A DNA stretch of 55,834 bases from Raja brachyura (Eukaryota). The notes beneath the pieces were generated by a model. It was given only the letters and a program-made list of their open reading frames with translations, made no database searches and had not been told where the DNA came from. A program made the translations under genes and the position numbers. The first letter of the stretch is position 1; every line of letters begins with the position of its first letter. This document shows positions 2,769 to 53,517 of this stretch, one piece after another. The stretch spans positions 18,786,001 through 18,841,834 of the forward strand of contig OY740808.1 of assembly GCA_963514005.1 (NCBI GenBank). The letters run 5' to 3'.

Positions 2769-2972
2769 GTGCAGGAAGCAACTGCAGGTGCCGGTTTACA
2801 CCAAAGATAGTCACACATTCCTGGAGTAGCTCAGCGGGCCAGGCAGCATCTCTGGATAGAAGGAATGGATGACGTTTCGGGTCCAGACCCTTCTTCAGAG
2901 CCTTCTTCTATTCTTCTATCCAGAGATGCTGTCCGTCTTGCTGAATTACTCCGGCCTGTATTTTTGGTGTTG
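2769..2972. mobile_element. Palindromic Penelope-derived miniature element; hammerhead core on the minus strand (2871-2898)
   Basis: Inverted arms. The minus strand reads CTGAAGA-A-GGGT-CTGG-ACCC-GAAA-CG-TC. Confidence 0.75.
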
Positions 2973-4402
2973 GTCTGCGTACCTGTGTTCCTCGATTTGA
3001 ATCGGCCTGTCTTCATTTGTCTGCCTGTGTCTATCTGCATCTTTCTCTGTGGCTGTCTTTGTCTGTCTGTTTGTTCACATCTGCCATTGTTCATTTCCCC
3101 TCTCTTTGTTTGTGCGCCTTCCAACATCCATCCACCGACTCCTCTATACTGTTCCATCTGCGAATGATCGACCATGTGTATCAAAATCCCTGTGTCTCTC
3201 TGACTGCCGGCCCATACACCAGAGACAGGCGGGCCACTGGATAAATTGGTTGCCGTGAAATGCGCCTCATGTGTAGATGAGGGGGGGAATCCGTGAGAGG
3301 TTACAGAGAGAGAGGGGGGGACAAAAAATGGGCTTAATGTTGGAATAATGTAAAATGGGTGGTTGATAATCAGTGTGGATTCAATGGGTCGAAGGGACTG
3401 TACCGTGCTGTATCTCTGTGACTCTGTGACCTTTGTTCATCCGTCTTCCGTTTATTTACGTCCACCTTCGCCCATTGTCAGTGCTCCTTTGTCCGCCTGT
3501 ATCGGCCTGTCCAACCTCTGCAGCTCTGCGGCTGTTAGTTGTTTGCCTGTCGCCAGTGTTTGCCCATCGGTGTGTGCTCACTCTTTCTGCCTGTCTTTGT
3601 GAGTGTCTGTCCCGGTCCCTGTTCGCTTGTATCTGCTAACCGTGCCTGTCTTTGTTGATCTCTGACGGTCCCCTTTTCTCTGTCTATCTAACCCGGGTTT
3701 TTAAATTGTTGTTATCTTAATATCAGTGTTAAAACTGCATCTCCGATGATGTCTTTGATAAATTGTACCTGGATACATTCTGGCATTTTGTGTCATATTT
3801 GATTTGACAGTCTGGTGAATGGAATGATTCTCTACAATCTTTGCATCCAGTACATGTGCTTGATGTGTGCGTTGAGGACTTGTGTACCCTGTTTGATATT
3901 TGGCACTGGGTGTAATGCGCTTTGTGGGCTGAGTTTCCCCACTGCCTTCACTTGAACGTTCCTCATTCCTGCTGAGGTTGAGGCTCTTTCATTAATTCCA
4001 CGCAAGGCTCAGGCCGGCAGAGTGACGGGGACTTCTTCAATGCGTTTCTAAATTTGACAACTTGTGTGCAGTGTTGGTTGCTGGCTTCCGCGGTAAAAGG
4101 ATTAAAATGTTCCCTGGGAGCAGGTAACTTTCTTATCTGTGGCCCTTGGGGAATAGTGCAAGGCACGGTGTTCAAAATTAATTCTTAAAGACCTATGTTC
4201 GCAGCAGGAGGCTCCTGTCACATGTTTCGCTTTAACAGCAGATGTGTGGGAATAAGGAAGGAAATTCATCTATATTTTAAAAGTTGCATTTTTATATATA
4301 GAAATATTGCCTTTCAGGTAGTGAAATGTCCCCCTTCCTCTGTCTACTGGAGATGCTGACTGTCCTGTGCATGTCAAGTGAGAATTCTTCACTTGTTAGT
4401 GA

Positions 4403-4611
4403 ATTTAGTTTAATTTAGTTTAGAGGTACAGCAGGGAAACAGGCCCCTTCGGCCCAGCGAGTCCGCACCGACCAGCGATCCCCACACATTAACATTCTAA
4501 ATGTTATCCTACATACACTAGGGACAATTTTACATTGATACCAAGCCAATTAATCTACAAACCTGTATGCCTGGGAGGAAACCGAAAATCTCGGTGGAAA
4601 CCCACGCAGTT
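4403..4611 (-). mobile_element. HE1-type SINE, 3' portion
   Basis: Reverse complement of the SINE tail and the 3' part of the V domain. Confidence 0.85.
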
Positions 4612-4928
4612 CATTTCTGCCATTTCAAGTAACCCCTGCGATCCTTCTCTTACCTCCCCCACCCCCCCCCTCCCCCACCCTAGTCATCCCACCAGTTTCA
4701 CTGTTCATATCACTGTATCCCTTCATTATCACCTCTTCCCCAGCCAACAATGGGCCATTGTGGGCTTCACCGTTCCTTGGCCATCTGTTGCTGGCCCTGA
4801 TTTGTTGTGGAATTTTTCTACCTCTATTCCCCCCACCTCTGCTTTCAGTCTGAAACATCACCTATTTCTTGTTTCCAGAGATGCTCCCTGACCTTCTGTG
4901 TAACCCCAGCACTTTGTGTCTATCTTCA
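4612..4928 (+). mobile_element. Penelope-like element 3' end (ORF terminus plus 3' UTR)
   Basis: tttctgccatttcaagTAA (FCHFK*) resembles the ...DFSNFK* end of vertebrate PLE ORFs. It is followed by a C-rich UTR and the shared terminal repeat, with the hammerhead stem II deleted. Confidence 0.65.
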
Positions 4929-5215
4929 CAGCAGATATGGACAGCTTCTCCAAGCTGGAGTTCCAGATTACATGTGAAACTCTCTTCCATTGAAATTCGT
5001 GGCTGCCGGTTGCCCATTTTAAACTACTCATCTTGAGTGTCCTACACGGATTCTGAAATGGGATAGTTGGGGGTCAGATGGGATCCAGCCACAGGTCCGG
5101 GGGTCTCTGGTGATGGGTGGGGAAAGGAGAGGGAGGAGAAGGTACAGCCAGAGGCACAACCATAGGTCACAAAGACCAAGTCAACCTGGAGCCTGCCCAT
5201 GGAGCTGGAAGTCAT

Positions 5216-5467
5216 GAAACATAGAAACATAGAAAATAGGTGCAGGAGTCGGTCATTCGACCCTTCGAGCCAGCACCGTCATTCAATATGATCATGGCTG
5301 ATCATCCAGAATCAGTATCCCGTTCCTGCTTTCTGCCCATAATCAGTACCCCCGTTCCTGCTTTCTCTCCATATCCCTTGATTCCGTTAGCCTTAAGAGC
5401 TATATCCAACTATCTTGAATAGATCTAGTGCATTGGCCTCCATTGCCTTCTGTGGCAGAGAATTCCA
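5216..5467 (-). mobile_element. CR1 LINE 3' end
   Basis: (gaaacata)n tail and the ttcgagccagcaccg...atcatggctgatcatcc motif. Confidence 0.85.
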
Positions 5468-5658
5468 ATTGGGTTGGGTTTCCAACCTTTCAAAGTTATT
5501 TCGGGGTCTTCAGAATCATTTTCTTTGACACGTTAGACATAATTATATGGAATTAAAATAAATCAGGATGGCAAGTCATCCTGCAGCGTGCACACAAATG
5601 AGCAACGTTGCTGCTTCTTCGGAACAAACTCCGATTCTTAAATTCCAGAAATTCAAGA

Positions 5659-6100
5659 GCGGCACAGTGGCGCAGCAGGTGGAGCTGCTGCCTTGGTGCG
5701 CCAGAGGCCCGGGGTTCATCCCAACCACGGGTGCTGTCTGTGTGGAGTTTGCACGTTCACACTGTGACCGCGTGGGTTTCCTCCGGGCGCTCCGGTTTCC
5801 CCCTACATACCAAATATGTGCGGATTTGAGGGTTAATTGGCCCTCTGTCAACTGACCCTCGTGTGTCGGGAGTGGTGAGAAGATGGGATAAATTATAACT
5901 AGTGTGAACGGGTAGACACAAAATGCTGGAGTAACTCAGCGGGACAGGCAGCATCTGTGGAGAGAAGGAATGGGTGACTTTTCGGGTCGATATCCTTCTT
6001 CCCTGTGAACAGATCGATGGTCGGCATGGTCTCGGTGGGCTGAATGGCCTGTTTCCATGCTGTATCACTAAACTAAAACTAAACTAAGACTAAACTAAGA
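5659..6100 (+). mobile_element. HE1-type SINE interrupted by a Penelope-derived arm (about 5913-6001)
   Basis: SINE head and V domain, inserted arm, then resumed SINE tail with (CTAAA)n. Confidence 0.85.
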
Positions 6101-52019: not shown

Positions 52020-52262
52020 CCCCGTAACTGCTAGCTCTGAACACGTCATACGGAAAGAATCATTAGAATCGAAAGGCATATCCATTGTAAAATATCACAT
52101 TGAAATTTGAACACATTTCCAGCTAATGGTTGTAAAAAAAGCCTAATTTCAAAGTGTTTTATTCTTACACATTTTGCAAATGTTACAGAAGCAGAATTCA
52201 GTGGCTTCCACTCCTGGGCTTTTATAGAGGCTGCCTCGATAAGTCTTTTCCTTCCTGGGTCC
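52020..52262. promoter_or_regulatory. Candidate conserved non-coding element
   Basis: AT-rich unique island between CR1 copies, with homeodomain- and SOX-like motifs (CATTGT, CTAAT). Confidence 0.35.
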
Positions 52263-52274
52263 AACTAACAAGGA

Positions 52275-52815
52275 CGAGGGGGGGGATCTCATTGAAACTT
52301 ACCGAATAGTGAAAGGCCTAGATAGAGAGGATGTGGAGAGGATGTTTCCACTAGTGGGATAGTCTAAGACCAGAGGCCATTGCCTTCCCTCACAATGGGA
52401 AACTCAGATTCTGCTGTGTGGTGATGTTTTCTGTTGGAGTCTATCTTGTGTTGTGTTTTTTTTTATTTGTAAGGCTGTATGGTGACCACACATTTCACTG
52501 TCCCAACTGGTACATGTGACAAATAAATGTATCTTGTATCTTGTATCTAAAAGGACGCTCCTTTAGGAAAGAGATGAGGAGATTTCTTTGGTCAGTGGAT
52601 GGTGAATCTGTGGAATTTTGCCACAGAAGGTTGTGCAGGCCAAGTCAATGGATGTTTCAATGGCAGTGATAGATAGATTCTTGATTAGTACGGGTGTCAG
52701 GGGTTATGGGGAGAAGGCAGGAGAATGGGGTTAGGAGGAAGAGGTAGATCATCCATGATTGAATGGCGGAGTAGACGATGCCTGAATGGCCTAACTCTGC
52801 TCCTATCACTTATGT
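52275..52815 (+). mobile_element. CR1 3' end with an inserted LINE tail (about 52383-52548)
   Basis: ggggggatctcattgaaacttaccgaata...gtgaatctgtggaat...; the insert ends in (tgtatct)n. Confidence 0.8.
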
Positions 52816-52837
52816 CACTTTCCTCAGTAGCTGTGCT

Positions 52838-53097
52838 GGGTTTCCAGGGTTACGTCCGTGCCCGGGTGCCTCTTGAGAATGAACACACGGTGTCCAAGGG
52901 GCAACCATGGGTGATTTCCGGGACCGCTAGGCACCGTGCGGTGGGGGGGGGAGTGTTAACTGAATCCTAGTCATTTAATATTTAGTAATAAGAATATTTG
53001 GTCATTTTTGTATTGTGGTGGTGGGTGTGTTGTCATCGTTTGCTTTGTTAATATTATCATTGAAAATAATTGAATAAATTTAGTCTTGATAAAAATA
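52838..53097 (+). mobile_element. Tx1/L1-clade LINE 3' end
   Basis: FQGYVRARVPLENEHTVS..GDFRDR*AP resembles a Tx1 ORF2 C-terminus, followed by a T-rich UTR and aataaa. Confidence 0.65.
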
Positions 53098-53229
53098 ATT
53101 AGTCGTGCTGGAGATGTGGTACTCAGAGAGCAGAAGGCTATTTTGTTGTACCGAACTTGCAAGACAGAAGAAGGCCTGAAACGTCACCCGTGCCTTCTCT
53201 CCAGAGATGCTGCCTGTCCCACTGAGTTA

Positions 53230-53454
53230 AGGGCCTGTCCCACTTGACCGTCATTTGCGCGTCATGCAGATGGCGCGCGAAGATTTTGTACATCACAAAT
53301 TCCTGCGACGCCACGCACAGCCGCGCGTCACTGCCTATGTCATCACACACCATGTGCGCGTCACGTGCATGTCACAACGCATGCATCGTGCGTTGTGACA
53401 CGTAAATTATGTCGCGTAAATCACGCGCAAATGACGGCCAAGTGGGACAGCCCT
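53230..53454. mobile_element. PIF/Harbinger MITE (225 bp) with TTA TSD, inserted in a Penelope-derived arm (about 53166-53515)
   Basis: TIR AGGGCCTGTCCCACTTG.CCGTCATTTGCGCGT; TTA at 53227-53229 and 53455-53457. Removing the element and one TTA restores the host gagttactcc. Confidence 0.92.
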
Positions 53455-53517
53455 TTACTCCAACATTTCGTGTCTATCTTCGGTTTAAGCCAGCATCTGC
53501 AGTTCCTTCCTACAGAC

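Follow-up and report, generated by a model that had tools for sequence, protein, structure and literature searches.

The genome of the ray Raja brachyura contains a short repeat, ~100-135 nt in length, that carries a minimal hammerhead ribozyme motif at one end and frequently occurs as head-to-head pairs. It is seen in a stretch of 55,834 nucleotides (assembly GCA_963514005.1, contig OY740808.1, positions 18,786,001 to 18,841,834 of the forward strand), referred to here in its entirety as the window. The question raised by this locus is whether such copies constitute a non-autonomous family that spreads on its own, as an original prediction from the window sequence had proposed, or whether they derive directly from a larger element. 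The repeat is the hammerhead-bearing pseudo-long terminal repeat (pLTR) end of Neptune-type Penelope-like elements (PLEs). Most of the short copies are likely (probability roughly 0.7) to be products of abortive run-off, in which the reverse transcriptase (RT) starts within the RNA and copies to an RNA 5' end that is probably capped.

The repeat and its parent element

Positions within the repeat are given on a scale where 0 is the first C of CUGA and the predicted hammerhead cut falls between +27 and +28. A profile was built from the window copies and then refined, with the same sequences read backwards serving as a control. The refined profile identified 42 matches in the window (40 with the first profile) and none in the reversed sequence; the ~20 copies originally noticed are real, though undercounted about two-fold. 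Fourteen of the 42 matches form seven head-to-head pairs, comprising all five pairs that had been named along with 12911-13090 and 13904-14064. The genome was sampled at round coordinates on 20 large contigs, in 78 stretches of 10 kb each (780 kb), and 363 matches covered 4.5% of the bases in this sample. Extrapolation from this sample gives ~1.3 million copies genome-wide, in agreement with the earlier suggestion of a strongly amplified family. A 31-letter version of the motif has 12,457 exact occurrences in the genome and 0 in the reversed control.

To place the unit relative to an open reading frame (ORF), 20 loci were picked for their long RT frames. The unit was located downstream of an ORF for RT and a GIY-YIG endonuclease, on the same strand, in all 20, mostly 100-300 nt past the ORF end; the proposed PLE origin and link to RT + GIY-YIG elements are thereby supported. 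Homologues carry PF00078, and among named proteins the nearest relatives belong to sharks and rays (63-74% identity). The GIY-YIG match scored 24.7 bits on a fragment, above the cutoff, and 20.5 bits on the whole ORF, below the cutoff. In loci L089 and L097 the order is 3' untranslated region (UTR), motif, tail and ORF, with the unit directly before the ORF, which is the arrangement of a partial-tandem pLTR. The unit is common to several subfamilies, whose 3' UTRs measure ~90-330 nt. Between the motif start and the first ATG of the long ORF there are ~160 nt.

The long ORFs possess a CX4CxxC linker motif upstream of GIY-YIG. Since a CX2-5CxxC linker between RT and endonuclease is named for the Neptune clade (PMC8557442), the motif points to membership of that clade. 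An assignment to Poseidon was dropped, as the linker motif speaks against it. Traits of Neptune-type insertions are also present, namely a partial-tandem pLTR, an inverted 5' copy, a tail of 30-40 bp at one end, and a target-site duplication (TSD).

After the tail, L097, L089 and L103 contain a long ORF that encodes an N-terminal domain of 160 residues and an extended proline-rich linker; its frame is continuous in L103 and shifted in L089 and L097. The ATG of this ORF is situated within AAG/GTATG, which resembles a splice donor.

Two coding remnants in the window had been taken as support for a PLE origin. The remnant at 45391-45447 is coding, with 89% identity over 57 nt to the endonuclease end of the PLE (E 1e-16), whereas the remnant at 4612 consists of a few last codons and mostly 3' UTR (4624-4752; E 3e-5 and 7e-8). 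Neither was detected at the protein level, with 0 of 45 tblastn high-scoring segment pairs falling within the window.

Ends of the short copies

Among the 357 sampled copies that lie clear of the stretch edges, 173 are solo, 123 belong to inverted pairs, and 61 extend at least 15 nt into the 3' UTR. The 3' ends fall into two groups ~35 nt apart, a difference that corresponds to the PLE tail. While 126 copies end inside the unit, the 5' side has a distinct edge at -7 to +5 where 163 of the 231 copies that reach it stop. The ending rate at this edge is 9% per nt as compared to ~1% in the UTR and 0.5% at the cut site, an 18-fold jump over 13 nt. The sequence flanking edge copies is not UTR-like: its pyrimidine share is 0.48 versus 0.78, and pyrimidine-rich flanks adjoin 6 of 93 solo edge copies versus 52 of 56 UTR-linked copies.

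TSDs were found in 28 of 148 young copies not linked to a UTR and in 1 of 146 swapped-flank controls. They are mostly 12-17 bp in length and of varied sequence, rather than of the TA or TTAA type that the original prediction had named as evidence against a PLE. Whole palindromes have TSDs of 10-19 bp in 33 of 89 cases (control 1 of 87), and the inverted terminal copies that had been described are borne out. These 89 pairs combine a short and a tailed arm (62), two short arms (12) or two tailed arms (4), with 11 unclear. The arms of a pair are more alike than random arms (0.148 versus 0.222). The palindromes are two separately ended arms and not a unit copied whole. Neighbouring copies are head-to-head in 73 instances and head-to-tail in 16.

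Flanks were collinear target DNA in 7 of the 84 copies tested, 6 of which lie outside simple repeats. In a search for empty alleles in the DNA contigs of other organisms, matches were swamped by paralogues. A reading of the edge as a splice acceptor (a pyrimidine tract followed by CAG/T) was rejected since junctions at -4, -3 and -2 lie inside the would-be intron and the flanks are collinear target DNA in the 7 copies above. Among the 15 joints listed of 39, none was a GT..AG joint ending at the edge. A sequence within the motif resembles a downstream promoter element, with only a loose fit in spacing.

Jump junctions

The genome has 736 matches to a 25-mer that lies immediately beyond the tail in the youngest subfamily. 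Ninety loci from the first two contigs, representing most of the first 100 matches listed, yielded 85 distinct copies with post-tail sequence. Sixty-seven jump forward to another PLE piece, 7 continue into the ORF, 10 end in flanking DNA (at least one of them misassigned), and 1 inverts. All 67 jump-joined copies reach at least +185, most of them 198-231, and therefore extend at least 55 nt past the longest short copy.

The jumps land at -8 to +5 in 36 cases, further upstream in 27, and inside the unit in 4. A joint onto the edge is made up of sequence 55-150 nt past the tail, a few A or T, and an untemplated G. At junctions from -5 to +2 with added letters, the last letter is G in 20 of 22 (21 of 23 when L224 is included; p 1e-8 versus a chance of 1/3), and the letters before this G are A or T in 47 of 50 instances. 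Of the 27 far landings, 3 have the G and 14 show microhomology. The edge is also where the outer copy stops in many loci with two units, and in L098 an A-tract + G joint follows after ~2.2 kb. All junction positions are uncertain by 1-2 nt owing to alignment noise.

Loci L221-L310 contain short tandem units drawn from the first 200-290 nt of the PLE, with the same junction occurring two or three times. Their periods are 191 in L225-227, 311 in L267 and 328 in L289. These tandems may have arisen from repeated jumps on one RNA, from a circular template, or from later duplication of the DNA.

A proposed run-off mechanism

In the mechanism proposed here, transcription would start at the motif edge, making the edge the start of the RNA. 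The TCAGT context at the edge resembles an initiator. As capped full-length L1 insertions are recognizable by an extra G (PMC11702581) and an untemplated G likewise precedes the edge, the RNA is predicted to be capped, and the junction G may be a copy of the cap. The PLE protein would bind the RNA past the tail, and its endonuclease would make a staggered cut of ~12-17 nt in the target. RT would begin at ~+100 or ~+130 and reach the cap within 135 nt. Joining after run-off would leave a solo copy, while priming by both cut strands, one at each RT start, would give a head-to-head pair. If, after run-off, the RT sometimes jumps to the RNA 3' end, tandem forms would result.

Support for internal starts is provided by Poseidon_Ac from the green anole, which in vitro uses two internal RT sites, extends both strands and accepts uncut RNA (Frangieh et al. 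2024, PMC11167929). This element needs RNA up to ORF +172, equivalent to ~+180 on the present scale because its ORF begins at stem II. The short copies, being without the binding stretch from +135 to +185, would be dead on arrival and unusable as templates, and poor templates of this kind fit the absence of clusters consisting only of short copies. The 5' motif is also expected to be a poor ribozyme, since transcripts beginning from -4 to +2 would be nearly without stem I or without the first letters of the core.

Several considerations weigh against run-off to a cap. An RT may append C wherever it runs off its template, in which case G marks a physical RNA end better than it marks a cap, and an exonuclease halted at the folded motif could mimic a capped edge. 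At -4, the letters in 100 exact copies among the matches listed are G 48, A 38 and T 14; G is not the sole excess, and this count is confounded by fold-back junctions. Start positions are spread (-7, -6, -5, -4, -3, -2, +2), TSDs occur in a minority of copies only, and the far landings are an imperfect control, 14 of the 27 being microhomology switches. For the jumps, the data cover a single young subfamily and 90 loci, all on the first two contigs, and the RNA evidence consists of assembled contigs, their kind guessed, that cannot reveal start, strand or cap. Finally, the anole element belongs to Poseidon, another clade, and the positional match is a carry-over from it.

A tentative extension, possible but doubtful, is two-step copying in the manner of a long terminal repeat (LTR) element without an LTR: a strong-stop cDNA of 100-135 nt would be made to the cap, followed by a jump to the RNA 3' end. 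Were this so, failed jumps would account for the million mini-elements, and jumps onto short RNAs ending in oligo-A would account for the tandems of 200-290 nt. Cutting of the full-length RNA by the 3' hammerhead would leave a terminal redundancy of 32 nt to guide a seamless transfer. A single scheme would then explain the pLTRs, the tail and what a slow ribozyme is for.

Alternatively, the copies could be PLE by-products whose edge marks the stopping of a 5'-to-3' exonuclease or of RT at a folded or protein-bound motif, with G a generic untemplated addition. The edge does coincide with the first letters of the structured motif, the starts are spread over ~10 nt, and G is also found at single landings at +15 and -22. 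This explanation is improbable given the near-uniform G at five different start positions and a predicted monomer fold that is weak and no better than shuffles; moreover, an RT arriving from the 3' side would be expected to stall at the 3' foot of stem II and not beyond it.

Slightly less probable still is the self-propagating family of the original prediction, in which short or palindromic masters resembling a short interspersed nuclear element (SINE), a miniature inverted-repeat transposable element (MITE) or a retrozyme would be transcribed and then mobilized in trans by the PLE protein. Defined ends and TSDs agree with it, as does the presence of PLE coding sequence within 700 nt upstream of only 30 of 405 matches, and non-autonomous PLE derivatives have been published (retrozymes, bioRxiv 10.64898/2026.07.22.740005; MRC1, PMC8557442). 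However, all four clusters of at least 5 copies mix UTR-linked and short copies, so that the short copies share clusters with ORF/UTR-linked ones, and the nearest-neighbour distance is the same between short copies as between short and linked copies (0.09 versus 0.09). A separate family is not borne out by this grouping. The centre of the palindrome also varies by copy, its separately ended arms are asymmetric in length, and the jump-joined templates reach beyond the short unit to at least +185. No tRNA gene was found in the window, and head-to-tail neighbours are few (16 versus 73). A retrozyme identity was rejected as there are no head-to-tail arrays with ends at the cut site. A MITE identity was rejected as the copies are without fixed terminal inverted repeats or TA/TTAA TSDs, having varied TSDs of 12-17 bp and asymmetric arms.

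Simple 5' truncation of PLE 3' ends at random points, as in long interspersed nuclear elements (LINEs) and with no special meaning to the edge, accommodates the 126 of 357 copies that end inside the unit, the 61 that run into the UTR and the heavy 5' truncation typical of PLEs (PMC8557442), but the 18-fold jump in ending rate over 13 nt and the G-marked junctions make it very improbable as a general account: it is contradicted for about half of the copies and probably holds for the rest.

The hammerhead motif and its predicted cut site

The majority reading of the motif is CUGAAGA-A-GGGU-(CUCG)-ACCC-GAAA-CG-UC. The 4-bp stem II, the extra A after A9 and the palindromic ACGU noted earlier are part of this majority reading. 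In all four sequence clusters of the genome, the majority retains the CUGANGA / GAAA / UH core with one extra nucleotide after A9; two CpG-prone or variable core letters fall below 60% in the two small clusters. Core and stem II are constant between clusters, and the differences lie in loop II and in the sequence downstream. Decay is extensive: among 41 non-redundant window copies, the motif is spanned by only 14, the catalytic core is preserved in 6, and core, stem II and ACGU together survive in 2 (2871-2898 on the minus strand and 20251-20278 on the plus strand). An intact motif is present in 34 of 359 sampled copies, or ~100,000 genome-wide by extrapolation.

Parts of the motif are recurrently lost through internal deletions between short direct repeats, for example ACCC...ACCC (L392, L399, L402; window 4847-4929 and 53162-53229). 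The middle of the repeat unit, without the hammerhead core, has also given rise to a satellite with a 66-nt period and at least 10 units (L051:425-1192).

A descriptor search of 80 metagenomic loci of related PLEs returned 30 motifs, 25 of them on the ORF strand, and 2 in reversed sequence. The core, with pairing not required, was present in 17 of 37 metagenomic loci having post-ORF sequence. In 15 distinct motifs from related PLEs, stem II is paired at 59 of 60 positions (0 of 5000 permutations were as good, for sequences that are related and not independent) and stem I at 44 of 45 positions over 3 bp, with several compensatory pair types. Helix III is palindromic in 12 of the 15, and reads ACGU in this genome. 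Covariation of stems I and II had been suggested as a check. It is evident among the relatives; within the genome, stem II shows no compensatory change across the four clusters, being invariant while the loop varies. Stem I here has 2 bp (U-A or U-G, and G-C) with A-C at the third position, and a 2-bp helix I has been reported for D. virilis (PMC4209133).

Judged by the covariation of both stems in related PLEs, the fold is conserved across this PLE group and matches the published minimal hammerhead ribozyme (min-HHR; PMC4209133). The minimal type I architecture put forward by the original prediction is upheld by the core, the extra nucleotide, stem II pairing in relatives, and the palindromic helix III. 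Searching the window and two element loci against Rfam gave no hammerhead family, a result that is uninformative for minimal forms. Single-strand folding formed stem II in 2 of 5 stretches and the hammerhead fold in 0 of 5 (z-scores from -1.45 to 0.5), and the predicted minimum-energy fold of a dimer differs from the hammerhead fold. The hammerhead is best read as an inherited PLE feature of known kind with putative ribozyme activity.

There is no pile-up of 5' ends at the predicted cut site in the sampled copies (0.5% per nt). Genome-wide, matches number 589 at +28, 641 at +29 and 1,639 at +30, all contaminated by variants and without an excess at the cut site, and ~4 of 20 inspected +28 loci are true starts. 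Four sampled solo copies end at the cut site versus 0-2 at neighbouring positions. Run-off templates thus appear to be mostly not hammerhead-cut, and rare cutting may occur in vivo; RNA that is cut and re-joined would escape the 5'-end test.

Other features of the window

Table 1. PLE-derived features of the window.
Feature	Position	Strand	Basis
Copy with ~50 nt of PLE 3' UTR, decayed hammerhead and tail	991..1119	+	profile match
Head-to-head pair: tailed arm on - (2770-2899), short 5'-truncated arm on +	2770..2957	both	profile match
Intact minimal hammerhead motif: core, 4-bp stem II, ACGU palindrome	2871..2898	-	
PLE 3' remnant: last codons, 3' UTR (4624-4752), unit with hammerhead mostly deleted (4847-4929)	4612..4929	+	
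Solo short copy within another repeat; 5 paralogous empty-site matches have collinear flanks	5911..6001	-	
Solo short copy starting at hammerhead edge	9256..9356	+	
Copy (10606-10671) with 5' end exactly at predicted cut site; perfect 12-bp direct repeats (10594-10605, 10672-10683)	10594..10683	-	
Head-to-head pair, both arms without hammerhead; 14-bp direct repeat, one mismatch	12402..12541	both	
Older head-to-head pair	12911..13090	both	
Older head-to-head pair	13904..14064	both	
Head-to-head pair, tailed + short, joint at hammerhead edge	15471..15698	both	
Solo copy starting at C3 of motif	17585..17699	+	
Copy with ~95 nt of 3' UTR; intact motif 20251-20278	20156..20345	+	
Two tailed copies in direct tandem	24042..24325	+	
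Solo short copy starting at hammerhead edge; 12-bp TSD, one mismatch	24891..24992	+	
Three-copy cluster (+, -, +)	29547..29921	mixed	
Copy with ~110 nt of 3' UTR	30349..30556	-	
Head-to-head pair, two short arms	31599..31783	both	
Head-to-head pair, short + tailed, joint in stem II palindrome	36776..36969	both	
57-nt remnant of PLE GIY-YIG-end coding sequence	45391..45447	+	
Solo tailed copy starting 3 nt before C3	45897..46028	-	
Two pieces (53162-53229, 53455-53515) of one tailed copy, apparently split by insertion	53162..53515	+	

A second abundant dispersed repeat (families D14, D15, D17-D19) is found at 5659-5873, 37316-37618, 46026-46200, 47142-47420, 50194-50384 and 53881-54162. It resembles the shark and ray SINEs that have a CR1-type tail. 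PLE ends often lie inside or beside it. From translated frames, LINE-like 3' fragments were recognized at 16276-16513, 21720-22323, 34781-35058 and 50705-50999, which we take to be CR1-like LINE 3' ends. A repeat at ~10150-10590, bounded by the terminus GGCCTGTCCCAC, adjoins the copy at 10606-10671 and has similar counterparts in L013 and L027; it is probably a DNA-transposon derivative. A 37-bp tandem repeat (47866-48157; 7.9 copies, 96% matches) lies directly before the copy at 48181.

Comparison with known systems

The component parts described here are already known, and the repeat is not a new self-spreading ribozyme element. In annotation, the copies should be labelled as PLE ends and not as MITE, SINE or microRNA hairpin. 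The original prediction had warned of mislabelling as MITE or SINE, and the microRNA label is a further hazard, as the pair at 12402-12541 draws sub-threshold microRNA matches.

The motif is closely related to the min-HHRs of metazoan PLE pLTRs (PMC4209133), with which it shares a type I core, one extra nucleotide after position 9, G10.1-C11.1 and a palindromic 15.2-16.2. These also occur mostly as single motifs genome-wide, with some opposite-strand pairs, and in the pLTRs of fish Neptune, Poseidon and Xena. They differ in number, with 4,000-9,000 in coelacanth and Xenopus versus an extrapolated ~100,000 intact motifs here, and stem I is only 2 bp in the present case. The available text of that survey names no cartilaginous fish.

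Insertions of endonuclease-containing PLEs (PMC3846280, PMC8557442) have the same RT and C-terminal GIY-YIG, CX2-5CxxC linker, partial tandems, inverted 5' pLTR copy, tail of 30-40 bp at one end only, and TSD. Unlike those, most insertions here are of the smallest form, without an ORF, and TSDs are 12-17 bp versus 8-10 bp in the rotifer. Solo pLTRs are put down to recombination or deletion in those papers, whereas here they have TSDs of their own. The animal non-LTR retrozymes (bioRxiv 10.64898/2026.07.22.740005) are similarly small, non-coding, hammerhead-bearing and kin to PLE pLTRs, and are reported in one chondrichthyan. They form head-to-tail tandems, while the copies here are mainly solo or head-to-head with 5' ends off the cut site.

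How pLTRs, inverted ends and tails are formed, and what the hammerhead does, have been called unresolved for PLEs (PMC8557442). In the mainly non-subscription literature covered, supplements aside, no description of capped run-off copies or jump junctions was found for PLEs. The closest experimental parallel is Poseidon_Ac (PMC11167929), which, in line with the mechanism proposed here, has two RT starts bounding the tail, cuts and extends both strands, and needs RNA 55-60 nt past the start. Its ORF begins in stem II rather than ~160 nt after the motif start, and run-off copies or jumps are not described in the available text. The value of the Raja brachyura copies lies in their record of junctions, which predicts where the RNA begins, where RT starts on it, how short a usable RNA can be and how far the cut is staggered, all directly testable with the Poseidon_Ac in vitro system.

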